64,000 bases of DNA from an uncultured Actinomycetota bacterium (GTDB lineage: Bacteria > Actinomycetota > Actinomycetes > JACCUZ01): positions 292,238-356,237 of the forward strand of contig CAVSCX010000003.1 of the NCBI GenBank assembly GCA_963726615.1, given 5' to 3'. The translations under genes were made by a program, and so were the position numbers. Numbering within the stretch: the first letter of the stretch is position 1; each line of letters starts with the position of its first letter. The notes under the pieces are model-generated. The model was not told the DNA's origin. It was given only the letters and a program-made list of their open reading frames with translations, and did no database searches. This document shows, one piece after another, positions 19,434-64,000 of the stretch.

Positions 19434-19545
19434 GGTAGGACGACTCCGCGTCACGGCCAGGGACCTGGACCGGTGTGTCGCACGATCAGTCCTGTGGCTG
19501 GTGTGACGAGTGTGACTCGACCGCCGCCGGTCGCAACCAACTGTC

Positions 19546-29112: not shown

Positions 29113-31467
29113 TCAGACCACCGCCCCGCTGCCGTCGCGCTGCGAGGAGCGACCGGTGGGTCTCGACGTCCGGACCGGAGGCGGCGGCGAGGGGCTGCGC
29201 CGCTCCAGCTCGATCGCCAGCGGGGCGGCGGTGAACATCGAGGAGTAGGTGCCGACCGCGATGCCGATGAGCAGTGCGATGGCGAAGTCCGTCAGGGAGT
29301 CGCCGCCGAGGACGGCGAGCGCCGCGAGGATGAAGACGGCACCCAGCCCGGTGTTGACCGTACGGGGCACGGTGCTCAGGATCGCGGAGTTCACGACCCG
29401 GTCGAACCCGCGACGTCGCTGGGAGCCCCACAGCTCGCGCACCCTGTCGAAGACGACCACCGAGTCGTTCACCGAGTAGCCGATGACTGTCAGCAGGGCG
29501 GCGAGGAAGACGCCGTCGATCGGCTTGCCGAGCCAGGCGAAGACACCGACGAGCACGAGCACGTCGTGGGCCATGGCGCCGACAGCGGCCGCGCCGAAGG
29601 TCCAGCGGAACCGCACCGCCAGGTACAGCAGCTGCACCACCAGCGCGACCCCGAGCGCGATGAGCGCCTTGCGGCGTAGCTCGTCGCCGAGGCTGGGCCC
29701 GATCAGCTCGTCGCGCTGCTTGACGACGTCGCCACCGGATGCGTCGGCGAGTGCGGCCCGCACTTCGGCCTCCTGGTCGTTGGTCATGTCAGCGGTGCGG
29801 ATCGAGATGTCGTCGGCTCCGCTCTCCTGCACGACCGCCCGCGGGAAACCAGAGTCCGAGACGACGGCTCGGGCCTCGTCGACGCTGATCGGCGCCGTCG
29901 TCGAGTACTCGACCAGGCGGCCGCCGGTGAACTCCACCCCGAGGTCGAGCCCGCGCCAGCCGATGCCGGTCAGGGCCAGCACCAGTGCCGCACCGGACAC
30001 GGCCAGCCACCGCCTGCCCAGGCGCATCAGGTCGGGGTCCCGCCTGGTGAGCCAGCTGCGGACCCGCCCGGGGGTGGAGATGCCGGTCACGCCGGGTCGC
30101 CGTACGACGGCTTGTCGACGCACCACCCAGTCGGCCAGCACCCGGGTGATGACCAGGGCCGACACCATCGAGGCGAGCACGCCGATGCCGAGGGTCACCC
30201 CGAAGCCGCGAACCGGGCCGGACGCCAGGTAGAACAGCAGGGCAGCCGCGAGCAGCGTCGTGACGTTCGAGTCGATGATCGCGCTCCACGCGTTGCGGAA
30301 GCCCGCAGTCACGGCCTGGCGCAGACCCTTGGCCGGCTCGGCGGCGTACTCCTCCTTCGCGCGTTCGAAGACGAGGACGTTCGCGTCGATCGCCATGCCG
30401 ATGGCCAGCACGAAGCCGGCCAGCCCCGGCAGCGTGAGCGTCGCACCGAGCCACGCCAGGGTGGCGTAGCTGATGAGCGCGTAGCTCGCGAGCGCGACGA
30501 CCGCCAAGGCACCGAGGAGCCGGTACACCACCATGATGAACACGGCGGTCAGGGCGACGCCGATGAGGGCTGCCTGCGCGCTCGCCTCGATCGCGGCCGC
30601 ACCGAGGGTGGGGCCGACGGTGCGCTGCTCGATCACCTCGACCGGCACCGGCAGCGCGCCACCACGGATCAGCACCGCGAGGTCCTTCGCCTCGTCCGGG
30701 GTGAAGTCACCGGTGATCTGGGTGGCACCACCGGCGATGCCGACGTCGCAGGCCACGGACGGGTCGACCTGCGGCGACGAGATGACCTGGTCGTCGAGGA
30801 CGATCGCGACCCGCCGCTGCGGGTCGCCCGGCGGCGCGCAGGCCGCGGTCCCGGTGAGCTGCTGCCAGGCGGAGCCGCCGGACCCCTTGAAGTCGATGGA
30901 CACGTACCACCCGCCCAGTCCCTGCGGGTCGATCTCGGCGGACGCGCCGTCGACGCCGTCACCGGTCAGGGCGGCCGGGCCGAGCTGGATGTCCTGACCC
31001 GTCTCGTCCGGCAGCACCACGGCGTCGCCGGGCTCCGTCGGCTGCTGCGACGGCTGGTCCGTCGGCGAGGGTGAGGACGTGGACCCCGGTGGCTGCACAC
31101 CCTGCACCGGGTGGAAGGTGAGCTGGGCCGTACGGCCGATCACGTCGGCGGCCTCGCGCGGGTCCTGCAGGCCGGGCAGCTCGACGATGATGCGCCGGTC
31201 GCCCGAGCGGGTCAGCGTGGGCTCCGCGATGCCGAGCGCGTCGACCCGGCGCCGCAGCACTTCGACAGCGCGGTCGGTGGACTCGGAGTCCGCGGTGACC
31301 GTGGCCGAGTCCCTGGTCTCGAGGACGATCTGGGTGCCGCCGCGAAGGTCGAGACCGAGGCGGACGGGAGTCGTGGCGGTGATCCACACGGCACCGGCGA
31401 GGATGCCGAGGGCGACGAGCGCACGGACGACGGGTGCGGACACGGGTGCCTCCGGGGGCACGGGCAC
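29113..31467 (-). CDS. secDF: Fused protein-export membrane protein SecDF (SecD and SecF in one polypeptide)
   Basis: 784 aa, GTG start. SecD periplasmic (LGLDLRGGTQIVLE) and TM regions followed by SecF periplasmic (LGVEFTGGRLVEY) and TM regions. Confidence 0.8.
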   Translation of the reverse strand: MPVPPEAPVSAPVVRALVALGILAGAVWITATTPVRLGLDLRGGTQIVLETRDSATVTADSESTDRAVEVLRRRVDALGIAEPTLTRSGDRRIIVELPGLQDPREAADVIGRTAQLTFHPVQGVQPPGSTSSPSPTDQPSQQPTEPGDAVVLPDETGQDIQLGPAALTGDGVDGASAEIDPQGLGGWYVSIDFKGSGGSAWQQLTGTAACAPPGDPQRRVAIVLDDQVISSPQVDPSVACDVGIAGGATQITGDFTPDEAKDLAVLIRGGALPVPVEVIEQRTVGPTLGAAAIEASAQAALIGVALTAVFIMVVYRLLGALAVVALASYALISYATLAWLGATLTLPGLAGFVLAIGMAIDANVLVFERAKEEYAAEPAKGLRQAVTAGFRNAWSAIIDSNVTTLLAAALLFYLASGPVRGFGVTLGIGVLASMVSALVITRVLADWVVRRQAVVRRPGVTGISTPGRVRSWLTRRDPDLMRLGRRWLAVSGAALVLALTGIGWRGLDLGVEFTGGRLVEYSTTAPISVDEARAVVSDSGFPRAVVQESGADDISIRTADMTNDQEAEVRAALADASGGDVVKQRDELIGPSLGDELRRKALIALGVALVVQLLYLAVRFRWTFGAAAVGAMAHDVLVLVGVFAWLGKPIDGVFLAALLTVIGYSVNDSVVVFDRVRELWGSQRRRGFDRVVNSAILSTVPRTVNTGLGAVFILAALAVLGGDSLTDFAIALLIGIAVGTYSSMFTAAPLAIELERRSPSPPPPVRTSRPTGRSSQRDGSGAVV

Positions 31468-31563
31468 GGTGCGGCGACGGGTCGCGCGGACCGTGCGGAT
31501 GGCTGGTGGGGCGCGGCGGCGAACGTCTGTCGGCGCGCGGCGGTGGGTGCTGTGGCGCTCGGG

Positions 31564-40768: not shown

Positions 40769-42153
40769 CAGCGGGCTGCGGCCGTCCTCGGCGCCTCGAG
40801 CCCGGCCTCCGCCGCCGCCGCGTAGTCCTCGTTCACGTGCACGACAGTCCGCCGGTCGACGTCGAGCATCGACGCGGCGATCGCGGCCCGGTACCCGGAG
40901 CCGCAGTACACCCACACCTCGCCGTCCGGCACCTCGGCCAACCGGTCCGGCAGCTCGTGGATGGGGATGTGCATCGACGCTTCGACATGTCCCGTGGCGC
41001 GCTCGTCGTGCCGTCGCGCGTCGAGCACGTGCACCTCGGCACTGTCGTCCTCCCCGAGACGGGCGGCGAGCCCGGCGAAGTCGGAGACGCGGTAGGTGCG
41101 CAGCGGACTTCCGGCGGCCATGGCCTCGACGTCGCCTACCGCGGCGCCCGCCAGCTCGTCGATACCGATGCGCACGAGCTCGCGCCGCGCATCGGCGACC
41201 TGCTCGGACGTCTCGCCGATGAGAGTGAGCGGGGCGCCCCACGGCACCAGCCATCCCACGTAGGTGACGAAGTTCGTACCCAGCTCGAAGTTCCGGCTGC
41301 CCGTCAGGTGACCGGCCGCGAACGCTGTCCGTTCGCGCAGGTCCACGACCCACTCTCCGGCCTCGATCCGTGAGCGCAGCTCGGCCGGGTCGACCGGCCG
41401 GGGGGCGCCGAGGTCGACCGGCTCCGGGCCGCGGTTGTTGGCCGGCCCCATGTGCGCGTAGTAGGCGGGGTAGGCGTCCAGCCCGGCGAGCAGCGTCTCG
41501 ACGTAGGTCTGCTCGTCCTGGGTGAGGGCCGGGTTCGTGGCACGCTGCTCCGCCACGGTGGAGTCGTCGCCTGAGGTCGGGGTGGCCGAGCAGAAGCTGC
41601 CGAACCCGTGGGTGGGCAGCACCTGGGCGTCGGACGGCAGGTCCGCAGCCAGCCGGCGCACCGACCGGTACTGCGCGCGGGTCAGGTCCACGGTGTGCTC
41701 CGGGCCGACGAGGTCCGTCCGGCCGGTGGAGCCGAACAGCATGGACCCGCCGGTCAGGACTGCCTGGACCGGGCCGTCCAGCACCGCGACGGCGTAGGCG
41801 ACGTGGTGGTGGGTGTGGCCCGGGGTGTGCAGCACCGACACCCGTAGGTCCCCCACCTCGAACGTGTCACCGTCGGCCACCGGCGTGTGCGGGAACTGTG
41901 CACCCATGTCGTGCGGCACGACGTAGGAAGCCCCGGCGACAGTCGCCAGCTCGAGGCCGCCGGTGACGTAGTCGTTGTGCCCGTGGGTCTCCGCGACGGC
42001 TGCGATGCGGACTCCCAGCGTCTGCGCCAGGTCCAGCACTCGGTCGATGTCGCGCTGCGGGTCGACGACAAGGGCGACGGTGCCGTCGGTGAGCAGGTAG
42101 CTGCGGTCACCGAGCGACGGTGTCTCGATCACGTGGTGGGTGAGTCCGGACAT
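40768..42153 (-). CDS. Persulfide dioxygenase (ETHE1-like MBL fold) fused to C-terminal rhodanese domain (CstB-like)
   Basis: Start at MSGLTHHV. MBL metal motif AETHGHNDYVTG plus HTPGHT. C-terminal rhodanese with active-site CGSGYRA. Confidence 0.8.
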   Translation of the reverse strand: MSGLTHHVIETPSLGDRSYLLTDGTVALVVDPQRDIDRVLDLAQTLGVRIAAVAETHGHNDYVTGGLELATVAGASYVVPHDMGAQFPHTPVADGDTFEVGDLRVSVLHTPGHTHHHVAYAVAVLDGPVQAVLTGGSMLFGSTGRTDLVGPEHTVDLTRAQYRSVRRLAADLPSDAQVLPTHGFGSFCSATPTSGDDSTVAEQRATNPALTQDEQTYVETLLAGLDAYPAYYAHMGPANNRGPEPVDLGAPRPVDPAELRSRIEAGEWVVDLRERTAFAAGHLTGSRNFELGTNFVTYVGWLVPWGAPLTLIGETSEQVADARRELVRIGIDELAGAAVGDVEAMAAGSPLRTYRVSDFAGLAARLGEDDSAEVHVLDARRHDERATGHVEASMHIPIHELPDRLAEVPDGEVWVYCGSGYRAAIAASMLDVDRRTVVHVNEDYAAAAEAGLEAPRTAAAR

Positions 42154-42169
42154 CTCGCTGCCTCCCGTC

Positions 42170-42517
42170 TCAGGCCGGCTCCGAGCCGGCGACAACCGGG
42201 TTGCCCGCCTTCATCCAGCCGCCGGTGCCCCCGGCGACCGAACGCGCGTCCGCACCGGCCTGGCCGAGCAGCCCGGCGCCGGCCTTGCTCCGGTTCCCCG
42301 AGGCGCAGACGACGAACACCGGGGCTCCGGCTGCCTCCCGTACCAGGTCGTCGGTGTGACGTCCGAGCTGGTCGAGCGGGATGTTGCGCGCGCCAGGGAC
42401 GTGGCCGCCGACGTACTCGTCCGGCTCGCGAACGTCCACGGTCAGCGCGCCCGCTGCATGGGCGGTGGCGAAGTCGGCGAGCTCGGTCTCACGGACGGTG
42501 TTGCCTTGGCTGGACAT
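42170..42517 (-). CDS. Single-domain rhodanese-like sulfurtransferase
   Basis: 115 aa. GAGGAG RBS. Active-site loop CASGNRS. Confidence 0.75.
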   Translation of the reverse strand: MSSQGNTVRETELADFATAHAAGALTVDVREPDEYVGGHVPGARNIPLDQLGRHTDDLVREAAGAPVFVVCASGNRSKAGAGLLGQAGADARSVAGGTGGWMKAGNPVVAGSEPA

Positions 42518-42529
42518 CAACACTCCTCT

Positions 42530-42545
42530 ATACGGGTGGGGGTAT
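42530..42545. promoter_or_regulatory. Operator-like box 1: ATACGGGTGGGGGTAT (ATAC-N8-GTAT), in the 5'UTR of the rhodanese operon
   Basis: Exact reverse complement of box 2. Sits immediately upstream of the rhodanese RBS. Confidence 0.5.
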
Positions 42546-42655
42546 CGTTCGAACCTATCAAGGCGCCGGGACCGGCCCTCATTCCGGTCTGCCCCGGTCA
42601 ACCTCCGACATACCCCGGCGGGGGCGTCTCGCACTCCTGCTTGCGGTATGGCAAC

Positions 42656-42671
42656 ATACCCCCACCCGTAT
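42656..42671. promoter_or_regulatory. Operator-like box 2: ATACCCCCACCCGTAT, 24 nt upstream of the MMPL GTG start
   Basis: Exact reverse complement of box 1, 110 nt away. Same ATAC-N8-GTAT architecture. Confidence 0.5.
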
Positions 42672-42694
42672 CCGAGAAACCGCGAGGACCCTCC

Positions 42695-44869
42695 GTGACG
42701 ACTGCCCCGACCGCCCGCGACACGAGCGTCAGCGGCCCCAAGAACACCAGGGACGACGGTAATGCCCGGCTGGGCCCGCTCGGCCGCCTCGGTGTGTGGA
42801 CCGCCACCCGTGCCCGGACTGTCTTCGTCGTGTGGCTGCTGATCGTCGTCTCCCTGGGGGCCTTCGCGCCGAAGGTGGAGCACGCGCTCGCCGGCGCCGG
42901 CTGGGAGGCGTCGGGGTCGGAGTCGGTCGCCGTGCGGGACATCGCGCACCGCGAGTTCGGCGGGATGTCGAGCGCCGCTCTCCAGGTCGTCGTGCACACC
43001 GACTCGGGCACCGTGACCACCGGTCCCGGCCGGGTCGCGGTCGACCGGGCCGTGGCACTGCTGCGCGCCGACGATCGGGTCTCCACCGTCCAAGCGCCGC
43101 GGCCCGGCACGTCGCTGTCCCCCGACGGACGCACTGCACTGATCCGCGGCGGCGCAGCCAGTGCCAACACCAACGAGATGGTCCGCGCGGCGGACGACCT
43201 CAAGGGACCGGTGCGCGACCTGAGCGGTGACGACGTGACTGTCGCGCTCACGGGGTCGTCCGCGCTGTGGAGCGACTTCAACGCCGCCAACCTCGACGCG
43301 ATGATGAAGAGCGAGCTCATCAGCTGGCCGGTCACACTGGTCATCCTCGTGCTCGCGTTCGGGTCCCTGGTGGCCGCCGGCCTGCCGCTGATGCTGACGA
43401 TCACCGGGCTGGTCGCCGCAGCCGGATCCCTCTACCTCGGCACCCTGCTCGGTGACATCAGCATCTGGGCGATGAACTTCGCGCTGATGTTCGCGCTCGC
43501 GCTGGGCATCGACTACGCACTGTTCGTGGTCGTCCGGTACCGAGCCGCGCGGTTCGGAGACCACCAGAACACCCGGTCAGCCGTTGGCGAGACCATGGAC
43601 ACGGCCGGCAAGGCGGTCCTCTTCTCCGGCGTCACCGTCCTGGTCTCCCTGTCGGCAGTGATGCTGGTGCCGTCGCCGGCCTTCCGCTCGATGGCCCTCG
43701 GCATCATGCTCGCCGTCGTCTTCGTCCTGGCCGCGACGCTGACCCTGCTCCCGGCCGTCCTCGGGAAGCTCGGTCACCGGGTGGACGCCCTCGCACTGCC
43801 CTGGGTGCACGCCGGTGAGCACCGGTCGCTCCGCTTCGAGCGGTGGGCCCAGCGGTTGTGGCGTCGGCCGGTCGGCTACGGACTGCTCGCCCTCGTGGCC
43901 CTCGCTGTCCTCGCAGCCCCGGTGCTGGGACTACGGACCGGGATGCCCTCGATCAAGGTCGTTCCGGAGACCGACTCCAGCCGGGTCGGCTACGCCGCCG
44001 TCCAGGACGCGTTCGGCCCGGGCGCACCAGGCACGCTGCAGGTCGTCGTCCCCCAGGACCGGGCCGGCCGGGCCGCGGCCGTGCTCGCCGACGATCCGGG
44101 AGTGGTCATGGTCATGCCGCCCGCTGCCGGCATTGGGAAGAAGGTCCTGCTGGCCGCCGTACCCGACGACGGCCCGTCCACCCGCGCCCTGGGCACGACG
44201 ATCGACCGGCTCCGTGCCGACCTGCCGTCGGAGGCCCTCGTCGGAGGCCCCTCGGCCGAGAACCACGACCTCGAGCGGCTGCTGGCCGACAAGACACCAC
44301 TGGTCATCGGCGTCGTGCTGGCGCTCGGCTTCCTGCTGCTGCTGGTCGCCCTGCAGGCGCCGCTGGTGGCGGCTCTGGGCACCCTGACGAACCTGCTCGC
44401 CACCGGTGCCGCCTTCGGCGTGGCGAAGCTGATCTTCCAGGACGGGCACGGATCGGGCCTGCTCGGGTTCGAGCCGCAGGGCTTCCTCGACGCCTGGGCT
44501 CCGGTGTTCTTCTTCGCCATGATCTTCGCCATCGGCATGGACTACACCGTCTTCCTGCTGGCGTCCGCGAAGGAGCACTGGGAGCGGTCGAACGACGCAC
44601 GCGAGGCGATGGTGGGCGGGCTGGCGCACTCCGGCCGGGTCATCTTCGCCGCTGCCGGCGTGATGGTCGCTGTCTTCTTCACCTTCGCCCTGTCCGGCCC
44701 GCTCCCCCCGAAGGAGATGGGTGTCGTCCTCGGCGTCGCCGTGCTCCTCGACGCAGCGCTGGTCCGTCTCCTGCTGCTGCCGGTGCTCCTGCGACTCAGC
44801 GGCCGAGCCGCGTGGGCTTCGCCCTCCTGGTTGCGCCGGCTGCTGCCGCGGGTGCGGTTCAGCCACTGA
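42695..44869 (+). CDS. MMPL-family (RND superfamily) membrane transporter
   Basis: 724 aa from GTG preceded by GAGGA. Two 6-TM bundles each followed by an extracytoplasmic domain. Confidence 0.8.
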   Translation: MTTAPTARDTSVSGPKNTRDDGNARLGPLGRLGVWTATRARTVFVVWLLIVVSLGAFAPKVEHALAGAGWEASGSESVAVRDIAHREFGGMSSAALQVVVHTDSGTVTTGPGRVAVDRAVALLRADDRVSTVQAPRPGTSLSPDGRTALIRGGAASANTNEMVRAADDLKGPVRDLSGDDVTVALTGSSALWSDFNAANLDAMMKSELISWPVTLVILVLAFGSLVAAGLPLMLTITGLVAAAGSLYLGTLLGDISIWAMNFALMFALALGIDYALFVVVRYRAARFGDHQNTRSAVGETMDTAGKAVLFSGVTVLVSLSAVMLVPSPAFRSMALGIMLAVVFVLAATLTLLPAVLGKLGHRVDALALPWVHAGEHRSLRFERWAQRLWRRPVGYGLLALVALAVLAAPVLGLRTGMPSIKVVPETDSSRVGYAAVQDAFGPGAPGTLQVVVPQDRAGRAAAVLADDPGVVMVMPPAAGIGKKVLLAAVPDDGPSTRALGTTIDRLRADLPSEALVGGPSAENHDLERLLADKTPLVIGVVLALGFLLLLVALQAPLVAALGTLTNLLATGAAFGVAKLIFQDGHGSGLLGFEPQGFLDAWAPVFFFAMIFAIGMDYTVFLLASAKEHWERSNDAREAMVGGLAHSGRVIFAAAGVMVAVFFTFALSGPLPPKEMGVVLGVAVLLDAALVRLLLLPVLLRLSGRAAWASPSWLRRLLPRVRFSH

Positions 44870-48903: not shown

Positions 48904-50250
48904 TCATCGCACACCGCGCACCGGCAGGATGCACGCCGCCGCGACCAGAGCACACAGGCCGGCCACGGCGTACAAGGCCGGGTAGCTGCCGAGCGCGAGT
49001 ATGCCCGGTGCCAGGGCCGGAGCGAGCGAGTACGGCAGGGCTCCGGCGATGTTGAACACGCCGAGGTCCTTCGCTGCGGTGGCGGGGTCGGGCAGCACGT
49101 CGACGACCAGCGCGAGGTCGATGGCGACGTACAGGCCGAGCCCGACGCCGCTGATGGCCAGCGCGAGGTAGAACCCGGCAAGCTGCGAGCTTGATGCGAG
49201 CACGAGCATGGCGACGCCGAACACGGCTGCGGCCACCATCACGAACACCTTGCGACGGCCGGTGCGGTCGGACAGCGGACCCCCGACCAGCGAGGCGGTG
49301 ATGACCAGGGCGGACTGCAGCGCGGTGGCGAGGAACACCTGGTCGGGCACGTCGTGGTCCGGGCTGCCGAGATGGTCGAGGAGGTAGAACGCCTCGTAGG
49401 TGGTGAGGCAGGCATAGGCGAACACGAACAGGAACCGGCTGGCGAACGCCCACAGGAAGTCGCCGCTGGCATGCGGCCGCACCCAGAAGGTGCGCGCCAG
49501 CTCTCCCCACGACCAGGGCGCCCGACCGGCCGGGTCGAGTCGCCGGTCGTCGAGGCGCCACATGAACCACCCGATGGCGACTCCGCCGACGAGGCACGGC
49601 GCGAGGAACATGGCCAGCGCGTGCGGGCTGAACACCTTCACGAGCAGGGTCCCGAGCACCGAAGCGACCGGAAGGCACACGCCGAGCACCCCCGACACCA
49701 TCCCTCGCTGCCGGGAGGGGACCTGGTCGGGCAGCACCGCCAGCAGGGCCGCGAGCACCGCGTTCAGGAACAGCTGCGCCAGGCACCAGCCGAGCACGAC
49801 GACCGCGACGTTGGGGGCCAGGGCGACGATGACCGTACCGACGGTGCCGCCGGCCAGGCCGACGAGCACCCACGGCCGGCGCATCCCCAGCCGTGAGGTG
49901 GTCCGGTCCGAGAGCCGGCCGAACACCGGGTTCCCGACCACCGCGACCAGCGACCCCAGGCCGGCGACAACGGCGAGGCGGTTCGGCGCCTTGTCGCCGA
50001 CCAGCGCGTCGAGCTTGAGCGCCAGGGTCACGACCAGCGGCGCGACGAGCATGACGATGACCCCGGTGTAGGCGGCCGCGAACTCCACGACGAACCGCCA
50101 CCCGACCGCGACCACGTCCGGCCGGCCGTCGCCACCGCCGACCGACAGCGGCGCGAACGGCGGTCCCGGCAGCGCGGACGTGGGTGACGTGTCGGACATC
50201 GCGGCCCCCGCGGGAGACTGGGCGATGACAGACGCCTCGCTCGTGATCAT
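48904..50250 (-). CDS. MFS transporter
   Basis: Start ATG with GGAG 8 nt upstream. 12 TM. GRLSDRTTSRLGMRRP loop 2-3 motif. C-terminal portion of the giant track ORF 48904..52590. Confidence 0.75.
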   Translation of the reverse strand: MITSEASVIAQSPAGAAMSDTSPTSALPGPPFAPLSVGGGDGRPDVVAVGWRFVVEFAAAYTGVIVMLVAPLVVTLALKLDALVGDKAPNRLAVVAGLGSLVAVVGNPVFGRLSDRTTSRLGMRRPWVLVGLAGGTVGTVIVALAPNVAVVVLGWCLAQLFLNAVLAALLAVLPDQVPSRQRGMVSGVLGVCLPVASVLGTLLVKVFSPHALAMFLAPCLVGGVAIGWFMWRLDDRRLDPAGRAPWSWGELARTFWVRPHASGDFLWAFASRFLFVFAYACLTTYEAFYLLDHLGSPDHDVPDQVFLATALQSALVITASLVGGPLSDRTGRRKVFVMVAAAVFGVAMLVLASSSQLAGFYLALAISGVGLGLYVAIDLALVVDVLPDPATAAKDLGVFNIAGALPYSLAPALAPGILALGSYPALYAVAGLCALVAAACILPVRGVR

Positions 50251-50322: not shown

Positions 50323-53191
50323 GTGAGACGGCCTTGCGGTGTCGCGGGTCTGCGCGACGATGGCCGGGTGGGAGGGACGGGGTCGCGCGCGCCGAGGGGT
50401 GCACCGCTCGTCCAGACCAAGCTGCACGTGCCCAGCGGCCGCGCGGCCGCGGTGCCCCGGCCACGGCTGTCCGACCGGCTCGCGCGAGGGCTGACGGGGA
50501 AGCTCACGCTCGTGTCGGCTCCGGCGGGGTTCGGCAAGACGACGGTGCTGGCGCAATGGCTCGCAGAGTCCCGTCAGGCACCTGGTGGTCCGGCGGTCGC
50601 GTGGGTGTCGCTGGACGAGCACGACAGCGAGCCGGGCCGGTTCTGGTCGTACGTCGTTGCTGCTCTGGCCGGCATCAGCGACGCCCTGCACGCCGACTCG
50701 TTGCCGCTGCTGCAGGGCCCGTCCGCAGCGAGCGAGGCGGCGATGGCCTCGCTGCTGAACGCTCTCTGTGAGCTGCCCGTGGACGTCGTGCTGGTCCTGG
50801 ACGACTACCACACCGTGACAGCGCACGAGATCCACGAGGCGGTGGGCTACCTGCTCGACCACCTGCCGTCGCAGGTGCATCTGGTGCTCTCGTCGCGATC
50901 CGACCCGCCGTTGCCGCTGTCCCGGCTGCGGGCCCGCGGCGACCTCGTCGAGGTGCGCTCGGCCGACCTGCGGTTCACCCGGGACGAGGCCGCGCAGTAC
51001 CTGACCGGTTCGATGGGGCTCGACCTGGCGGCAGCCGAGGTCACGCTGCTCGCCGAGCGCACCGAGGGGTGGGCAGCCGCGTTGCAGCTGGCGGGCCTGT
51101 CGCTGCGGGACCGCGACGACACGGCCGCGGCCGTCGCCGGGTTCGCCGGCGACGACCGGTTCATCGTCGACTTCCTCGCCGAGGAGGTCCTGACCCGGCT
51201 GCCGGCCGATGCGCGGGAGTTCCTCCTGCGGACCGCGGTCCTGCGGCGGCTGACCGGGCCGCTGTGCGACGCCGTCACGGGACAGACCGGCGGCGCGGCA
51301 CGGCTCATCGAGCTCGAGCGGGCCAACATGTTCCTGGTCCCGCTCGACGACCGCCGCGAGTGGTACCGGTACCACCACCTGTTCGGTGACGTGTTGCGCG
51401 CGCACCTGTCCGAGCAGCATCCGGACGAGGTCGCGGCGTTGCACCGGCGCGCCAGCGACTGGTGGCACGGCCGGGGTGACGCTGCCGAGGCCGTCGAGCA
51501 CGCGCTCGCCGCCGACGACCCGGAGCGGGCAGCCGAGCTGATGGAGCTCGCCTTCCCGCTGATGGCGCGTGAGCGGCGCGAGGCCGAGCTCGCCCGCTGG
51601 GTCGGCGCCCTCCCGGACGACGTGGTGCGGACCAGGCCGGTGCTGGCCATCGCCTTGGCAGGCGCACTTGCGCAGGTGTCCGACTTCGCGACGGTCGAAC
51701 AACGACTTGACGACGTCGAGCGGCTGTTGGTCGATGCGGACGGCAGGTGGCCAACCGAGCCGCCGGACGGACTGGTCGTCGTCGACACCGACGGCTTCAG
51801 GGCCCTGCCGGCGACGGTGCACATGTACCGGTCGGCGCTGGCGTTGTCCCACGGCGACCCAGCCGGAACGCTCGGGCTCGCCCGGCGCGCGCTGCAGCTG
51901 GCGCCTGAGGGCCACCACCTGCTCCGGGCGGGTGCCCGCGCCCTGGCGGGGCTTGCTGCCTGGGGCATGGGAGATCTGACGGCCGCCCACGCCGCCTACA
52001 CCGACTCGACCATCGACATGCGCCGGGCCGGGCACCTGGCCGACGTCCTGGGGCTGTGCATCACCCTCGGCGAGCTGTGCCTGGCACAGGGGCGCCTGAC
52101 CGACGCCGAACGAACCTTCCGGGACGCCCTCGACCTCACCGCAACCGTTGACGGAGCGCCGCTGCGCGGCACTGCCGACATGCACGTGGGCCTCGCCGGC
52201 GTACTGCTGGAGCGCGGCGACATCGCCGGAGCCGCCGCCGAGCTGGTCACCGCCGACGCCCTCGGTGAGCACAAGGGGCTGCCGCAGAACCCGTACCGCT
52301 CTCGGGTTCTCCACGCATCGCTGGCCGAGACCGCGGGGGACCTCGACGCCGCGCTGAGCCTGCTCGACGAGGCGGAGCGGGTCTACAACGGTGACTACGC
52401 CCCGGACGTGCGGCCGGTGCCCGCGGTGCGAGCCCGGCTGCGGCTGCGCCGCGACGAGCTCGACCTCGCCGAGGCATGGGCCCTTGAGCGACACCTCGCG
52501 CCCGCCGACGAGCTGTCGTACCTGCGTGAGTACGAGCACATCACCCTCGCCCGGCTCCTGCTCGCACGGCACGGGACCGGCGGGGCGCACACGGCAGCCG
52601 GTGGCTCACCGCCGCTGGACGAGGCGACCGGCCTGCTCCAGCGGCTGGCCGCCGCGGCCGAGACCGGCGGCCGCGTGCGACCGCTCATCGAGATCCTCGC
52701 CCTGCTGGCGCAGGCCCACGCGGCGCGTGCCGAGCGCGACACCGCCCTGAGCACCTTGCGGCGGGCGGTCGAGCTCGCTGAGCCCGAAGGACATGTCCAC
52801 GTTTTCACCGGCGAAGGACCCGCGCTGGCCAGCCTGCTGCGGGCTCTCTCACGTGCCGAGCCAGGCTCCGCGTTACCTGCGGCGACTCGCGACAAGCAGC
52901 GAGCCGGAGCCGACCGGAGCGCGCACCGCTCGGCAGACCGCCGCGGAGCACCCGGACCGACCCTGGGGGCACACGCTCGTCGAGCCGCTGTCGGAGCGGG
53001 AGCTGCAGGTTCTGCGGCTGCTGGCCACCGACCTCGACGGCCCGGACATCGCTCGCGAGCTGCACATCTCGCTGAACACGATGCGCACCCACAGCCGCAA
53101 CATCTTCCGCAAGCTGCAGGTCACCAGCCGCCGGGCCGCGGTACGGCGGGCCGTCGAGCTCGACCTGCTGCCCCGCCGACGCCGCACCTGA
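50323..53191 (+). pseudogene. LAL/MalT-type LuxR-family regulator (AAA ATPase + TPR-like + C-terminal LuxR HTH) interrupted by a +1 frameshift near 52.87 kb
   Basis: Walker A LVSAPAGFGKTT. The LuxR HTH ([43 protein letters not shown]) lies in the +2 frame (track ORF 52793..53191). The main frame continues into Pro/Arg-rich nonsense to 53295. Confidence 0.6.
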
Positions 53192-53357
53192 CCCACACCG
53201 GCAAGCGGGCCGCCGCGCGGCGCGCACGTTCACCATGCCGCTCACCAGATGTGGTGACGACGGCTCACCACATCGGTTCCTACCTTCCCGGGTGATGGGG
53301 GACGCGAACCCGCGCCGACCCCCGCCGGAACAGCCCACAACTCCCACGAGGTGTCCC

Positions 53358-53534
53358 ATGTGCCAGCACCAGCCCCAGTGCCCTCCCGCCGACAGCCCGG
53401 CGCGCCAGCTCGCGCGCACCGTCGCGGGCCACCCGGATCAGGGCTGGAGCCTCCTGTGCAACGGGGTCGTCGTGTTCGACGACCTCGGCGAGCTGCTGCC
53501 GCACGGCGCCCCGGGCGTCGCGCAGGCCGCGTGA
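53358..53534 (+). CDS. Small Cys-containing protein resembling the actinobacterial DUF5999 family (58 aa)
   Basis: MCQHQPQCPPADSPARQLARTVAGHPDQGWSLLCNGVVVFDDLGELLPHGAPGVAQAA. Internal start of track ORF 53235..53534. Confidence 0.5.
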   Translation: MCQHQPQCPPADSPARQLARTVAGHPDQGWSLLCNGVVVFDDLGELLPHGAPGVAQAA

Positions 53535-53667
53535 GGGGCGTGACTGCCGTGCGCCAGGTCCAGCAGAGGCGGCTCCCGCGGCCGGCTCGCCCGGCAGATC
53601 TCGACCTCACCACCCCGTCCGGCCGATCCCTGCCCTTCTGACCAGCCGAGAACCGGAAGGACATCCG

Positions 53668-54006
53668 ATGAGAAACGCGAACCCGACGACCCGCCCGCGG
53701 GAGCCGAGGCAGTACGCGATCCGAGTCGACAGCCTCCTCGACCAGAGGTGGGCGACGTGGTTCGACGGGCTCACGCTCACCCACCAGGACGACGGCACCA
53801 CCGTCCTCGACGGAGCCGTGGCCGACCAGGCCGCCCTGCACGGTCTGCTCCAGAAGATCCGCGACCTGGGCCTACCGCTGCTGTCCGTCACGCCCGCAGA
53901 CACCACGACCAGCCCCGCCACCGACGACCCCACCGACCGGCCCGGGGCGGGCGCCTCGACACCCACCACCACGACCACCACCGCGACCACCGGGAGCTCC
54001 TCATGA
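53668..54006 (+). CDS. Hypothetical soluble protein with Thr/Pro-rich tail, translationally coupled to the MMPL gene
   Basis: ATG with GGAAGGA RBS. Stop overlaps MMPL start (ATGA at 54003-54006). Confidence 0.5.
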   Translation: MRNANPTTRPREPRQYAIRVDSLLDQRWATWFDGLTLTHQDDGTTVLDGAVADQAALHGLLQKIRDLGLPLLSVTPADTTTSPATDDPTDRPGAGASTPTTTTTTATTGSSS

Positions 54007-56225
54007 ACCGCTTCATCCGTCGCCTCGGCGACCTCAGCGCCCGCCGCCCCTGGACCATCATCGGAACCTGGGCCGTCGTGGCCGCGCTCGTGGCCGTGCT
54101 CTCCGGCGCACTCGGCGGCGCGTTCGTCGACGACTTCAGCGCACCCGGCAGCGACAGCGCCAACGCCATGGACCTGCTCGACGAGCGGTTCCCCGCCGTG
54201 GCCGGCGGCACCGCCGTCGCCGTGTTCGCCGCCCCCGAAGGTCAGCAGGCAACGGCTTTCCGGCCCGCCGTCGACGCCGCACTGTCCCGGGTCGCGAGGA
54301 TCGACCACGTCGCCGCCGTCGGCGACCCGTTCGCCGCCGGGCACGTCTCCCCCGACGGTCGCGTCGCCTACGCGGACATCGCCCTGGACGTGCCCTCGAC
54401 CCAGTTCGGACGCGACACCGCCGCCACCCTCGTGCACGCCCTCAAGACAGCCCAGGTGAACGGGCTGCGGACCGAGTTCGGCGGCGACGCAGCGTTCCTC
54501 AACGCTGAGGAGGAGAAGTCCGGCTCCGAGGTCTTCGGCATCGTGGCCGCCCTCGTCGTGCTGCTCGTCGCGTTCGGGACCGTCGTGGCCGCACTCGTGC
54601 CCATCGTCCTCGCGCTGGTGGCGGTCGGTGTCGGGCTCGCCGGCATCGTGCTGCTGGCCGGCGGCATCACGGTCTCCACCGCCGCACCGACCATCGGGGC
54701 CATGGTGGGACTGGGCGTCGGCATCGACTACGCGCTGCTGATCGTGTCCCGCTACCGCGAGAACCGTGCCGCCGGGCACGCCAACGGCCCCGCGCTCTCG
54801 GTCGCCATGAGCTCGTCCGGCACCGCCGTGTTCTTCGCCGGTGGCACCGTCGTGCTCGCGATGGGTGCCCTCGTGCTCACCGGCGTCGGCTTCCTCGCCT
54901 CCATCGGCATCAGCACCTCCATCGTCGTCCTGTTCGCGGTCGCCACCGCAGTCACCCTGCTGCCCGCGCTGCTGTCCGTCCTCGGTGACCGCATCGACGC
55001 TGTGCGGGTCGTCGGCCGTCGCCGCGACAGGACCGCCAAGGCGGCGAAGCCGGTGGAGGCGACCGTCTGGTGGCGGCTCGCGCACCGCATCTCCGCCCGG
55101 CCCGTCCCGTACCTCGTCGCCGGTGCTCTGGTCATGCTGACGCTGGCCGTCCCGGCCCTGTCGCTGCAGACCGGCTTCCCCGACGCGAGCGACAACCCGT
55201 CCGGCCACACCGAGCGCAAGGCGTACGAGCTGCTCGCCGACGGCTTCGGTCCCGGCTACAACGCCCCGCTCGTCGTGGTCGCCGACCTGCGCGCCGCCCA
55301 CCTCGACCCGATCGACGTCTCGTCGCTGGCGGCCGACATCGGCGCCGTCCCCGGAGTCGCCCAGGTCGGCGAGCCGCGCACCAACCGGGCCGGCGACACC
55401 GTCGTGCTGCCCACGCTGCCGACCACCGATCCCTCGGACCCGGCGACCGTGCGCACCCTCGAGCGGGTCCGTGCCGTCACCCCGCCCGGGGTCTTCGTGA
55501 CCGGCCCGACCGCGCTGACCCTCGACCTGGACAGGCAGCTGTCCGAGACTCTGCCGCTGTTCATCGGCGCCATCCTCGCGACCTCGATCCTGCTGCTGAT
55601 GATCGTGTTCCGCTCGATCGCCGTGCCGCTCAAGGCCGCCGTGATGAACATGCTGTCCATCGGTGCCGCCTACGGGGTCGTGGTCGCCATCTTCCAGTGG
55701 GGCTGGCTTGCCGGCGCGTTCAACATCCACGACACGTACCGGATCGCCTCGCCCCTGCCGGTCATCTTCTTCGCGGTGCTGTTCGGCCTCTCGATGGACT
55801 ACGAGGTGTTCCTCGTCTCCCGGATCCGCGAGTCCTACGAGGCCACCCGGGACAGCACGGAGGCGGTCGCCCGCGGCCTGGCGTCCACCGGACGGGTCGT
55901 GACGTCCGGCGCGCTGATCATGGTGCTGGTGTTCCTGTCGTTCGTCACGAACCCGTCCCCGTTCGTCAAGATGATCGGCATCGGCCTGGCCACCGCGATA
56001 GCGCTGGACGCCACGGTCGTCCGCATGGTGCTGGTGCCGGCCACGATGGCTCTGATGGGCCGGACCAACTGGTGGCTGCCCGGGTGGCTGGACCGAGTCC
56101 TGCCGCACCTGAGCCTCGAAGGTCCCTCAGCCCAGCCGCCCGCCGCTCCGGTGCCCGTGCCCGCGCAGGGCGACAACCGCGCCCCGGAACCGGACGCCAC
56201 GCCGGTCCCGAGCGCCTCTCGCTGA
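54003..56225 (+). CDS. MMPL-family (RND superfamily) membrane transporter
   Basis: 740 aa from MNRFIRRLGDLSARRPW. Duplicated 6-TM plus periplasmic domain architecture. Confidence 0.8.
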   Translation: MNRFIRRLGDLSARRPWTIIGTWAVVAALVAVLSGALGGAFVDDFSAPGSDSANAMDLLDERFPAVAGGTAVAVFAAPEGQQATAFRPAVDAALSRVARIDHVAAVGDPFAAGHVSPDGRVAYADIALDVPSTQFGRDTAATLVHALKTAQVNGLRTEFGGDAAFLNAEEEKSGSEVFGIVAALVVLLVAFGTVVAALVPIVLALVAVGVGLAGIVLLAGGITVSTAAPTIGAMVGLGVGIDYALLIVSRYRENRAAGHANGPALSVAMSSSGTAVFFAGGTVVLAMGALVLTGVGFLASIGISTSIVVLFAVATAVTLLPALLSVLGDRIDAVRVVGRRRDRTAKAAKPVEATVWWRLAHRISARPVPYLVAGALVMLTLAVPALSLQTGFPDASDNPSGHTERKAYELLADGFGPGYNAPLVVVADLRAAHLDPIDVSSLAADIGAVPGVAQVGEPRTNRAGDTVVLPTLPTTDPSDPATVRTLERVRAVTPPGVFVTGPTALTLDLDRQLSETLPLFIGAILATSILLLMIVFRSIAVPLKAAVMNMLSIGAAYGVVVAIFQWGWLAGAFNIHDTYRIASPLPVIFFAVLFGLSMDYEVFLVSRIRESYEATRDSTEAVARGLASTGRVVTSGALIMVLVFLSFVTNPSPFVKMIGIGLATAIALDATVVRMVLVPATMALMGRTNWWLPGWLDRVLPHLSLEGPSAQPPAAPVPVPAQGDNRAPEPDATPVPSASR

Positions 56226-56286: not shown

Positions 56287-57273
56287 ATGATCCAGGCCCG
56301 CAACATCACCAAGCACTACGGCGACAAGGTGGCCGTCGACGACATCAGCTTCACCGTCGCCGCCGGCAAGGTCACCGGCTTCCTCGGCCCGAACGGCGCC
56401 GGCAAGTCCACCACGATGCGCATGGTCGTCGGGCTGGACCGTCCGACCGCCGGCACCGTGACCGTGAACGGCCGCCGGTACGCCGAGCACGGGTCGCCGC
56501 TGACCGAGGTCGGCGTGCTGCTCGAGGCGAAGGCCGTGCACACCGGTCGGTCCGCGGTGGACCACCTGCGCGCCGTGGCCGCCACCCATGCCTTCGGCCG
56601 CCGCCGCGTCGAGCAGGTCATCGACATGACCGGCCTGCACAGCGTCGCCGGCAAGCGGGTCGGCGGGTTCTCCCTCGGCATGGGCCAGCGCCTCGGCCTG
56701 GCAGTCGCGCTGCTCGGGGACCCGCACACCCTCATCCTCGACGAGCCCGTCAACGGGCTCGACCCGGAAGGGGTTCTGTGGGTGCGGAACCTGCTGCGGC
56801 AGCTCGCCGCGGAAGGGCGCACCGTGTTCCTGTCCTCGCACCTGATGAGCGAGATGGCCCTGACCGCCGACCACATCCTGGTGATCGGACGCGGCCGTAT
56901 CATCGCCGACGCCCCGGTCGCCGACATCATCGCCCGCTCCAGCGGCACCAGCGTGACCGTCCGCACGCCCGAAGCCGGCAGGCTGGCCGATCTGCTGCGC
57001 GGCCCCGACGTCACTGTCATCCCGGCGGACGACGGCCGCCTCGAGGTCCGCGGTACCAGCGCCCAGGTCATCGGCGAGGCGGCAGCCTCCGCCGGCCTGG
57101 TGCTGCACGAGCTGGCCCCGCACCGCGGCAGCCTCGAGGACTCCTACATGTCGCTGACCGCCGACGCCGTCGAGTACCACGCCGCCGGCAGCCCCTCCGC
57201 CGACCCGACCCCCCAGACCGCACCGGTGCCCGCCACCCGGCAGGCGCCGAACTCGAAGGAGACCCACCGATGA
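56287..57273 (+). CDS. ABC transporter ATP-binding protein
   Basis: Walker A GPNGAGKST. Signature FSLGMGQRLG. Walker B LILDEPV. Confidence 0.85.
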   Translation: MIQARNITKHYGDKVAVDDISFTVAAGKVTGFLGPNGAGKSTTMRMVVGLDRPTAGTVTVNGRRYAEHGSPLTEVGVLLEAKAVHTGRSAVDHLRAVAATHAFGRRRVEQVIDMTGLHSVAGKRVGGFSLGMGQRLGLAVALLGDPHTLILDEPVNGLDPEGVLWVRNLLRQLAAEGRTVFLSSHLMSEMALTADHILVIGRGRIIADAPVADIIARSSGTSVTVRTPEAGRLADLLRGPDVTVIPADDGRLEVRGTSAQVIGEAAASAGLVLHELAPHRGSLEDSYMSLTADAVEYHAAGSPSADPTPQTAPVPATRQAPNSKETHR

Positions 57274-58148
57274 GCACTCTTACCGCCCCCGCCCCCGCCC
57301 CCGCAGTCGCCCGCGCCCGCGCGCACCACGTGACGTTCCCCCGGGTGCTGCACGCCGAGTGGATCAAGTTCTGGTCGCTGCGGTCGACAGTGTGGACCGT
57401 CGCCGCGACCGTCGTCGTCATGGCCGCCGTGAGCTGGCTCGCCGCGTTCTTCACCGCCCGCGAGGCCACCAGCCCCAGCACGACGCCGCAGGACGCCGCC
57501 GAGCTGACCCGGCTGCTGCACGACCCGGGCCTCATCCTGACCGGCACCGAGCTCGCCAAGCTCGTCGTTGCCGTCCTCGGTGTACTCATCATCACCGGTG
57601 AGTACTCCACCGGCATGATCCGCTCCACGCTCACCGCGGTCCCACGCCGCCTGCCGGCCCTGTGGGCCAAGGCGCTCGTGCTCTTCGCGGTCACCACCGG
57701 CACCGTGGTGGTCGCCGAGGGCCTCTCCTGGCTGGTGGCCGCCCCGACCCTGCACTCCCACGACGCCGCCCTGGACCTGGGTTCCGCCGAGACGCAGCGC
57801 ATCCTGCTCGGCGGCGTCCTCTACCTGGCCGGCATCGCCCTGCTCGCGTTCGCGGTCGGCGCCATCATCCGGGTGGCTGCGGGCGCCCTCGCGACCGTGC
57901 TCGGCCTGCTGCTCGTCGTCGAGGTCCTGTTCCGCACCTTGCCGGTCGACTTCTTCCGCCAGGTCAGCCCGTTCCTTCCGGCAACCGCCGGGCACCAGCT
58001 GCTCGTCACCCAGTCCAGCATCGAGCAGGCCCGCGCCACCACCAGCGCAACCGTCCTCGAACCCTGGGTGGGGTTCTCCGTGATGGTCGCCTGGGTCGCA
58101 GTCGCACTCGCCGTTGCCGCCGTGCAGCTGCGCCGTCGCGATGCATGA
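57270..58148 (+). CDS. ABC-2 family transporter permease
   Basis: ATG overlapping ATPase stop (ATGA). GAAGGAG RBS. 6 TM. Confidence 0.7.
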   Translation: MSTLTAPAPAPAVARARAHHVTFPRVLHAEWIKFWSLRSTVWTVAATVVVMAAVSWLAAFFTAREATSPSTTPQDAAELTRLLHDPGLILTGTELAKLVVAVLGVLIITGEYSTGMIRSTLTAVPRRLPALWAKALVLFAVTTGTVVVAEGLSWLVAAPTLHSHDAALDLGSAETQRILLGGVLYLAGIALLAFAVGAIIRVAAGALATVLGLLLVVEVLFRTLPVDFFRQVSPFLPATAGHQLLVTQSSIEQARATTSATVLEPWVGFSVMVAWVAVALAVAAVQLRRRDA

Positions 58149-61515: not shown

Positions 61516-64000
61516 TCAGTCGAGGGTGAGAGCCATCAGCTCGGCCCGTGAGGTGACGCCGACCTTGGTGAAGACGTTGCGCAGGTGGAAGTCGACCGTG
61601 CGGGGGCTGACGAACAGCTGCCCGGCGACGTCTCGGTTCGACATACCCTGCCGGACCAGACGCGCCACGTTCAGCTCCTGCGCGGTCAGGTCGGTCGCGG
61701 TCGACACGTCCCGGCGTCGGGCGGTCTCCCCGGATGCGCGCAGCTCCGCCGCGGCCCGGTCCGCGAACGGTGCCGCGCCGAGCTCCTCGAACGTCGCCAG
61801 CGCGGCCCGCAGGTGCACCCGGGCGTCGACCCGTCGGCGGCCGCGACGGAGGAACTCGCCGTACGCGAGCTCGGTCCGCGCTCTGGCCGGCGGACGCGCG
61901 GACGCGGCGTGCTGGGCGAGAGCCGCCTCGAAATGCCGCTCGGCGTCGTGGGCCTCGGTCGCGAGCAGTGCGGCGCCGTGCTCGGCGACCGCGAGCGCCC
62001 ATGACGCACCGGTCTGCTCGCCGTAGAGCTGCATCTCGTCCGTCCACGCTCGGGCCGCGTCGTGCTGGTCGGCGCGCACCGCCGCCTCGATGCGGTCCAG
62101 AGCCGCGAACCGCCGGACCGGCCCGTCATGGATGTGCTCGAGGAGGTGGAAAGCGGTTGCCGGCGCCCCGCCGGACCGCGCGGCGACCACGGCCTTCGCC
62201 CAGCGGGCGAAGTCGCCCAGCAAGTGCTCGGCGACACCCACCGGGTACGCGGCCGCAACCTGCTCGGCCTCCGCGAGCCGATCCTCGAACTGCTCGTCGC
62301 CGCGGAACGCCGCGACCAGCGCCGCCTCCGCGAGCGGCAGCGCGGCCAGCCCTGGCTGCCCCGAGCCCTGCGCCAGCGGCATCGCCTCCGATGCGCCGGT
62401 GACCAGCGACGTCCACCGGCCGGTGACGAGCTCGATGAGGCCGCGGCGGGTCAGCGCGTACAGCACCATGATGAGCGCCCCGGTCGCGCGCGCCCCCGTC
62501 AGCAGCATGTCGTGGTAGCGGAACGCGAGCTCGTCGTCGCCGACGTGGAACGCGGCGATGCCGAGGTTCGGCAGCAGGTCCTGGTCGTCGCCCTCGACGA
62601 ACTCGGCGCGCTCGAACGCCTCCCGGAGCGCCGGCATGGCCTGCGGCCACTCCGCGCGACGCACATGGTCCAGCCCGACCAGCAGCCAGTAGAACGAGTG
62701 CGCCCGCGCCGGCTCGTCCGGCCCAGGCGGCGGCGCGACCGTCGTCGGGTCGACCTCGAGCTGCGCGTGCGGGTTGAACGACGCGAGCGCCGCGGCGAAC
62801 ATCGCCATCTCCCGGGCGCGTCGCGGGTCGTGCGGCGCGACATCCCGGGCGCCGCGCAGCACCATGGTGATGCCGTCGTGCACCGACCCGGTGTTCCACT
62901 CGATGCGGGCCCGCAGCCGTGCGATGTCCGCACCGAGGAGTGGGTCGCTGACCGCGTCAGCGGCAGCGGCCGCCAGCGCGCGTGCCCGGCCGGGCTGTGC
63001 GGCCAGCCACGCTCCCCACGCCGCGCCGAAAAGGCGCCGCGCCCGTGCCTCCCGGTCCGCCGACAGCTCCGCGGCCCGCTCCCACGCCGCCGATGCGGCC
63101 TCGTGACCGCCACGAGCACTACCGCGCTCCGCCGCGGCGTCCAGCGCCGCGACCACCGTGTCGTCCGGACCTTCCGCGGCGGCCGCGAGATGCCACGCGC
63201 GCCGGTCGTCGTCGCCGGTCGACGCGAGCGCGTCGGCGAGGGCCCTGTGTGCGCGTCGCCGCTCGAGGCTGGTCGCCGCGCCGTACACCGCGGACCGGAC
63301 CAGCGGGTGCCGCATCGCGACAACTCCGTCGCGCACCTGAGCCAGCGCGGACCGCTCGACCTCCTGCTGCGCCTCCTCGTCCGACCCGAGGGCGGCCGCC
63401 GCCGCGCCGACGGCGGCCGCGTGCCCAGAATCGTCGGCGGCCGCGACCAGCAGCCACGTCTGGGACGGCTCCGACAGGCGGCGGAACCGGTCCAGGAACG
63501 CCCGTTCGACTCCCTCGGTCAGCGGCAGTGTCGCCGGAAGCGGCACGACGCCGCGGAGCTGGTCAGGGGACAGCGCGTCGGCCATCTCGACGAGCGCCAG
63601 CGGGTTCCCGCCGGTCTCCTGCGCCAGCCGCTGCGCGACGCCGGCGGCGACGGTCGTGCGCGCGTGAGTGCTGAGCAGCTCGGCCGTACCGGGTTCGTCG
63701 ACCCCGCCGAGAAGCAGCTCCGGCAGGTCGCCGGAGTCGAACCGGCGCACGTCACCGTCGCGCGCGGCGAACAGCAGTGCGACCCGCTCGTCCGAGAGCC
63801 GGCGGGCCACGAACTGCAGCGCGGCCGCGGACGCGTCGTCGAGCCAGTGCGCGTCGTCGACCACCGCCAGCACAGGCGCCTCGTCAGCCGCCTCGCTGAG
63901 CAGGCTCAGCGCGCCCAGGAACACCAGGAATCGGTCACCGTCGCCGTCGGCCTGCCCGAACACCGCCCGCAGCGCCCGGCTCTGCGGCTCCGGCAGCCTC
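61516..64000 (-). CDS. LAL/MalT-type LuxR-family transcriptional regulator (N-terminus beyond window)
   Basis: >815 aa. C-terminal LuxR HTH LTAQELNVARLVRQGMSNRDVAGQLFVSPRTVDFHLRNVFTKVGV. Reading frame continues past 64000. Confidence 0.75.
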   Translation of the reverse strand, partial: RLPEPQSRALRAVFGQADGDGDRFLVFLGALSLLSEAADEAPVLAVVDDAHWLDDASAAALQFVARRLSDERVALLFAARDGDVRRFDSGDLPELLLGGVDEPGTAELLSTHARTTVAAGVAQRLAQETGGNPLALVEMADALSPDQLRGVVPLPATLPLTEGVERAFLDRFRRLSEPSQTWLLVAAADDSGHAAAVGAAAAALGSDEEAQQEVERSALAQVRDGVVAMRHPLVRSAVYGAATSLERRRAHRALADALASTGDDDRRAWHLAAAAEGPDDTVVAALDAAAERGSARGGHEAASAAWERAAELSADREARARRLFGAAWGAWLAAQPGRARALAAAAADAVSDPLLGADIARLRARIEWNTGSVHDGITMVLRGARDVAPHDPRRAREMAMFAAALASFNPHAQLEVDPTTVAPPPGPDEPARAHSFYWLLVGLDHVRRAEWPQAMPALREAFERAEFVEGDDQDLLPNLGIAAFHVGDDELAFRYHDMLLTGARATGALIMVLYALTRRGLIELVTGRWTSLVTGASEAMPLAQGSGQPGLAALPLAEAALVAAFRGDEQFEDRLAEAEQVAAAYPVGVAEHLLGDFARWAKAVVAARSGGAPATAFHLLEHIHDGPVRRFAALDRIEAAVRADQHDAARAWTDEMQLYGEQTGASWALAVAEHGAALLATEAHDAERHFEAALAQHAASARPPARARTELAYGEFLRRGRRRVDARVHLRAALATFEELGAAPFADRAAAELRASGETARRRDVSTATDLTAQELNVARLVRQGMSNRDVAGQLFVSPRTVDFHLRNVFTKVGVTSRAELMALTLD

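Follow-up and report, generated by a model that had tools for sequence, protein, structure and literature searches.

Organisation of the regulator gene

The window analysed here (64,000 nt with a GC content of 74%; contig CAVSCX010000003.1 of an uncultured Actinomycetota bacterium, positions 292,238–356,237) carries a gene for a MalT/LAL-type regulator that is spread over two reading frames. The Walker A and B motifs and the TPR_MalT sensor are encoded in frame 0, and the linker and the helix-turn-helix (HTH) domain of the GerE/LuxR type in the +1 frame. The sequence-only reading, made from the letters of the window before any database search, had placed the gene divergent from an MFS transporter and upstream of a DUF5999/MMPL/ABC block, and the Pfam searches support this context (Table 1).

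The regulator body was matched by Pfam TPR_MalT (PF17874) at aa 498–843 (nt 51814–52851; E 3.4e-54, 184.8 bits against a cut-off of 45), with weak AAA_22/NACHT matches in addition. Frame 0 then runs on to a stop at 53295 through a tail rich in Ala, Arg, Pro, Gly and His, so that translation and Pfam agree with the earlier description of a body frame carrying Walker A and a TPR-like region before lapsing into Pro/Arg-rich nonsense. Equally, the intact LuxR HTH that had been seen in the other frame, ending at 53191, was recovered as a complete GerE match (nt 52985–53152) within the +1-frame open reading frame (ORF) 52793–53191. The NCBIfam MalT model (NF003420, 903 positions) was matched over positions 2–787 by frame 0 and 836–896 by the +1 frame, and because the two halves fit one model in this way, the split is far beyond chance. 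In a frame plot of GC content at third codon positions (GC3), the coding signal moves from frame 0 to the +1 frame at 52.8–52.9 kb, and the regulator is the only well-supported ORF in the window with a coding signal that ends more than 200 nt before its stop. In the TPR_MalT model the frameshift maps to position 334 of 336, exactly where the sensor domain ends.

A protein search with the joined frames returned thousands of intact one-piece homologues, the closest being P0001 (932 aa, 91% identity), and the homologues read EPGS-G/A/R-YLRRLA across the junction. DNA alignment with three relatives (L001, L002 and L004; GTDB representative genomes with 91–95% DNA identity) showed a single 1-nt gap, common to all three, at 52871/52872, the only indel of a length other than a multiple of three across 8 kb of aligned coding sequence. 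The junction codons are TCC GCG TTA C in the window, TCC GCT CAC in a sister assembly of the same species (described below) and TCC/TCG GGT/GGC TAC in the relatives. Aligning both frames to intact LAL regulators, the check that the sequence-only reading had put forward, thus pinpointed the indel at G52872, within 1–2 nt of the place that it had marked for a single-nucleotide frameshift between body and HTH. G52872 is the best placement, although any position in 52870–52872 is equivalent. The form with the extra G reads CCGCGTTACC across 52865–52880; the corresponding junction form is GGCTCCGCGTTACCTG (14 nt between GGCT and CTG), with GGCTCCGCTTACCTG, GGCTCCGGTTACCTG and GGCTCCGCTCACCTG as the comparison forms. 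Two details of the earlier proposal had to be corrected: the frames are joined by removing one nucleotide and not by adding one, the sequence being one base too long, and the lesion does not lie in a G/C run, since the context CCGC[G]TTAC is neither that nor a homopolymer.

Deletion of G52872 yielded an uninterrupted protein of 955 aa, which aligned without gaps to the sister protein (6 amino-acid differences) and matched the MalT model in one stretch (positions 2–896 of 903, 408 bits, E 7.9e-122). One surplus base therefore splits the gene; without it, the window encodes a 955-aa MalT-like STAND/LAL regulator collinear with intact homologues. The HTH, out of frame with the body as the sequence stands, then belongs to the same polypeptide, as it does in the sister assembly. 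Walker A/B, TPR_MalT, GerE and the end-to-end match to the MalT model also uphold the initial assignment to the LAL type.

The probable start is GTG 50323. The ATG used by the relatives (MGAPLVQTKL) corresponds to AGG at 50395–50397 in both the window and the sister, which was not counted as a second lesion because the in-frame upstream GTG fits the longer N-terminus of other homologues. The start called in the sister is the equivalent of GTG 50428 and removes the conserved PLVQTKLH motif (50404–50427).

Table 1. Coordinates of the regulator gene, its frameshift and the flanking features within the window.
Feature	Position	Strand	Evidence
MFS transporter, divergent	48904..50250	-	Pfam MFS_1, E 9.5e-30
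Regulator body (NTPase, helical/winged-helix part, TPR_MalT sensor), frame 0 up to the extra base	50323..52872	+	Pfam, MalT model
Walker A GFGKTT, aa 69–74	50527..50544	+	translation
Walker B-like VLVLDDYH, aa 156–163	50788..50811	+	translation
Patch with 9 substitutions and the indel	52834..52976	+	window versus sister alignment
Extra base G, cause of the frameshift	52872..52872	+	DNA alignments
Out-of-frame continuation of frame 0, 141 codons without coding signal	52873..53295	+	translation, GC3
Sensor-to-HTH linker, +1 frame (ends ...HTLVE)	52874..52984	+	homologue alignment, pN/pS
GerE/LuxR-type HTH, +1 frame, intact; stop codon 53189–53191	52985..53191	+	Pfam GerE, E 2.2e-17
Conserved intergenic block, candidate operator/promoter	53228..53298	+	relative alignment
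DUF5999 gene, 58 aa	53358..53534	+	Pfam PF19462, E 5e-28
112-aa protein gene, large unannotated family	53668..54006	+	homologue searches
MMPL transporter; start codon shares bases with the 112-aa gene's stop (ATGA)	54003..56225	+	Pfam MMPL, E 3.3e-84
ABC transporter ATPase	56287..57273	+	Pfam ABC_tran, E 2.2e-25
ABC-2 type permease, ATGA overlap with the ATPase gene	57270..58148	+	sub-threshold Pfam; sister gene call

The sister assembly and the variable patch around the indel

The sister assembly, ENA ERZ25039476 contig_2619 (1.9 Mb), was found through exact look-ups of neighbouring window proteins. Over 47 kb (12483–33406 and 38099–64000), it and the window share 99.9% identity. Its regulator is intact, being called as one protein of 920 aa with WHD_MalT, TPR_MalT and GerE domains. 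The product of the window is stored publicly as P0123 (955 aa including the nonsense tail; NCBI and ENA, on a contig of 499,899 bp). P0123 shares its 90% identity cluster with the sister protein and five further members, and all six of these read through the junction; cluster members are labelled as metagenome-assembled genomes (MAGs) of Sporichthyaceae bacterium or Actinomycetes bacterium. The extra base is unique to the window assembly, being present neither in the sister contig nor in the three close relatives. No further copy of the allele of this species was found among JGI metagenome contigs scanned with a degenerate junction pattern and with a conserved HTH 44-mer, and when the last 172 aa of the repaired protein were used to look for same-species fragments from independent assemblies, such as short-read ones, no match above 78% identity was returned.

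In total, the two assemblies differ by 23 substitutions, one in-frame 3-nt indel and three 1-nt indels, of which two (19528 and 31522) are intergenic and the third is G52872. At 19528 the window is without a T where the sister reads CCTGG, and at 31522 it has an additional A; the in-frame indel is an additional GCT at 31041–31043 of the window, in a SecDF-like gene. The substitutions outside the patch at 52834–52976 comprise seven synonymous, three non-synonymous and four intergenic changes, a distribution that points to real divergence under purifying selection rather than random error.

The patch itself spans 143 bp and contains 9 of the 23 substitutions. Together with the indel, these make up the majority of the 18 sister differences in 38–64 kb, and 8 of the 10 are packed into 41 bp. 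The window agrees with the more distant relatives at all of the substituted sites and the sister is derived, with some of its changes at conserved residues (Y851H and L885F). Among the relatives the linker evolves neutrally, with a ratio of non-synonymous to synonymous change (pN/pS) of ~1. Relaxed constraint alone is nevertheless no explanation, because the patch is ~90 times more divergent than a rough synonymous-site estimate from elsewhere (7 changes in ~10,000 sites). No sequence matching the sister's patch, as would be expected of a paralogous donor for gene conversion, was present in the window or in any fetched locus, and inspection for hairpins and repeats around the site as a source of instability showed nothing notable. 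The patch may be a recombination micro-tract, a mutation cluster or a mixed-strain consensus.

Selection on the gene was assessed against the relatives, which gave pN/pS values of 0.23–0.26 for the body and 0.29–0.50 for the HTH. Codon changes on the window lineage numbered 49 synonymous to 26 non-synonymous in the body, compared with 30:18 and 53:27 in relatives, and one synonymous to none in the HTH; the GerE domain (52985–53188) shows no amino-acid difference between window and sister. Selection on the gene was therefore normal up to a very recent time, and the sequence after the shift shows no decay, which makes the lesion either very young or not biological. An established old pseudogene was accordingly rejected, there being no further lesion and no relaxation of selection.

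Origin of the surplus base

Two origins are thus left for the extra G, an error of assembly or a knockout that is still very young, in both cases an ordinary single-base frameshift that involves no new biological mechanism, and the pair of options named in the sequence-only reading, assembly error or inactivating mutation, still stands. With modest confidence, we favour a consensus error of long-read metagenome assembly in a strain-variable stretch, the real gene being in one piece. The source would be a Nanopore-only assembly of the Flye/Medaka type, and the error would have arisen where reads of different haplotypes disagree. The inserted G equals the allele of the relatives at the same position (GGT versus GCT), and a possible route to GCGT is that, at one polymorphic position, the window retains the C found in the sister type (GCT) as well as the relatives' G (GGT). 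The position of the indel within the patch favours an artefact, because sites at which haplotypes differ are where consensus errors should accumulate; the chance of an independent event landing in these 143 bp is ~0.3%.

Related MAGs, from Microflora Danica, were produced with a Nanopore-only Flye and Medaka pipeline (PMC12313526). The contig of the sister record is named in Flye style and its accession is of the ERZ250394xx series, and in two other assemblies of this accession series, MalT-like genes lie in two to three pieces beside other split genes. These are L052 (ERZ25039534 contig_43865) and L053 (ERZ25039495 contig_23171), in which the MalT-like regulators are divided over two to three called genes, for example of 587, 95 and 151 aa; an MFS gene that is split and a DUF4386 gene that is truncated lie beside them. 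Many short TPR_MalT + GerE "proteins" on long ENA contigs are probably likewise fragments of broken genes.

Several observations weigh against an artefact. Homopolymers are the usual place of Nanopore indel errors, and the site is not one. Outside the patch, the differences from the sister resemble real evolution, and the two other 1-nt indels are both intergenic, which together argue for a low local error rate in both assemblies and for real 1-nt indels between strains. Furthermore, the platform and the strain mixture of the window's own sample are only inferred. The case resembles the indels of Nanopore-only metagenomes, and equally ordinary frameshift pseudogenes, in that a conserved gene is intact but for one surplus base, and differs from typical Nanopore-assembly indels in its non-homopolymer site and in the lack of any other frameshifted gene in the window.

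The same observations lend weight to a real extra G, which we regard as a serious possibility, if not the preferred one. It would represent a very recent, strain-specific loss of function, leaving a product with the NTPase and sensor followed by a nonsense tail of 141 residues and lacking the DNA-binding domain, so that it is predicted to be unable to bind DNA. The contig is evidently not error-ridden in general, the substitutions outside the patch show purifying selection in two assemblies that look accurate there, and the strains are set apart by 1-nt indels at 19528 and 31522, a density at which about one tolerated coding frameshift in 41 kb would be unsurprising. Regulators of accessory transporters are, moreover, common targets of loss-of-function mutations. 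Conversely, a real mutation requires a coincidence with the patch or an unexplained mechanistic link to it. It would also have to be extremely young, as the window lineage has neither a second lesion nor a non-synonymous excess, and it is not found in the sister, the only other assembly of the species that was found.

A real mutation would mean that this strain no longer has the presumed activator of the neighbouring DUF5999, 112-aa, MMPL and ABC genes, and perhaps of the MFS gene, an activator that its closest known relative keeps; this would be a routine case of regulatory loss at strain level. No new question on frameshifting or on LAL regulators is raised. For annotation, the gene is best treated as a single MalT-like regulator, ~955 aa long and with a one-base problem at 52872, and not as a 955/990-aa protein with an odd Pro/Arg-rich tail, as stored in P0123.

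It is very unlikely that the split is functional, with a sensor-only STAND protein cooperating with a free-standing 132-aa HTH protein, or with the latter acting constitutively. The HTH ORF does begin with an ATG (52793) preceded by GAAGGA, and many short TPR_MalT + GerE proteins are called on long public contigs. The GAAGGA ends just 1 nt before the ATG, though, a spacing too short for an ordinary ribosome-binding site, and the body frame stays open as far as the stop at 53295, so that ribosomes would pass through the HTH ORF with no coupling point; separate production of the HTH is hence unlikely. Those short proteins that were inspected sit in visibly fragmented genes, and neither the sister nor any relative has the split arrangement.

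Least probable of all is programmed +1 frameshifting, in which ribosomes would stall at the rare Leu codon TTA (52873–52875) and slip by +1 to TAC, full-length protein being made under particular tRNA conditions. We give hardly any credence to the corollary that the extra G is real and conditionally bypassed, the supply of rare Leu-tRNA(UAA) setting the amount of DNA-binding-competent regulator in an unusual form of bldA-type control. The ORF has a single TTA codon, which lies exactly at the shift site, none occurs in the five other correctly framed genes or gene segments that were counted, and a +1 slip there restores the ancestral ...EPGSAYLRRL... sequence. Any 1-nt insertion before TAC would, however, yield TTA, and the P-site codon GCG is unable to re-pair in the +1 frame (CGU). 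Sites of the prfB type combine an in-frame stop with a Shine-Dalgarno-like stimulator, and neither is present here. Nor is the shifted arrangement conserved, the sister and all relatives being single-frame. An Rfam scan of 48–58.5 kb gave no match.

Family placement, neighbouring genes and candidate operator

LAL regulators are defined by an N-terminal ATP-binding site and a C-terminal LuxR HTH, with MalT as the prototype (PMC3551636). Judged by its domains, the protein fits this definition once the extra base is removed. The repaired protein shares its end-to-end architecture with Escherichia coli MalT, the activator of the maltose regulon, which combines a STAND NTPase with a LuxR-type HTH. 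It is not an orthologue, since its score against NF003420 (368.9 bits as found, 408 repaired) is below the curated cut-off of 537, and its context consists of MFS, DUF5999, MMPL and ABC genes instead of a maltose regulon. Compared with the actinomycete LAL regulators FkbN, RapH and PikD, it is alike in domains, length (~950 aa) and high-GC actinomycete host, and differs in that its place in the window is not within a polyketide or other biosynthetic cluster. A further difference is that its subfamily extends to Chloroflexota and other phyla, its members usually being followed by a small protein of the 112-aa type.

As a family, MalT-like STAND regulators oligomerise on binding ATP and an inducer, and they use the C-terminal LuxR HTH to activate promoters. 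By analogy, the intact protein would oligomerise on ATP and ligand and then activate neighbouring promoters via its HTH. The order MFS/regulator/(DUF5999)/112-aa/MMPL/ABC is kept in the relatives, and these neighbouring genes are the likely targets. Binding would most likely occur in the intergenic block ahead of the DUF5999, 112-aa, MMPL and ABC genes, with the divergent MFS gene as a further possible target.

This block, 53228–53298, is nearly invariant among the relatives despite diverging flanks. It contains four exact TCACCA boxes in 41 bp, compared with 45 across the whole window, as well as a perfect 9-bp palindrome, ATGTGGTGA-N7-TCACCACAT, at 53249–53273. It is a candidate operator, possibly of the MalT-like regulator. 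We rate this TCACCA-box region, together with the variable patch and the widespread, unannotated 112-aa partner protein, as more interesting than the frameshift itself.

Among the downstream genes, the ABC-2 permease matched Pfam ABC2_membrane_2 slightly below the gathering score (25.7 bits against 27.2, E 8e-6). The DUF5999 gene is a dispensable insert in the gene row, because relative L004 (MFD02581.bin.1.161) is without it and keeps the others: a 246-nt deletion (window 53354–53600) removes the whole gene, with the regulator and the 112-aa, MMPL and ABC genes retained.

The 112-aa protein matched no Pfam family. It belongs to a family of "hypothetical" proteins with at least 7952 matches at E ≤ 1e-5 and a 60-aa core in which W28, F32, D33, G34, D42, G43, D53 and Q54 are invariant. 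Its AlphaFold model shows a beta-alpha-beta-beta-alpha-beta order in a ferredoxin/ACT-like fold, with values of the predicted local distance difference test (pLDDT) of 77–87 in the core, and gave only weak matches against the PDB (best E 0.011). Of 42 loci from Actinomycetota and Chloroflexota, 20 have a homologue on the same strand as the MalT-like regulator and immediately downstream of it, and five more loci, including one from a Bacteroidota MAG, have it within ~3 kb of the regulator. The protein may be a conserved partner or the first target of this regulator subfamily.

Finally, the window holds a second MMPL gene (42140–44869, + strand) and a second large LAL-like regulator with AAA_16 and GerE domains (61516–64000, − strand), which continues past the window end and comprises 898 aa in the sister; with these, several paralogous regulator/transporter sets are clustered in the window.

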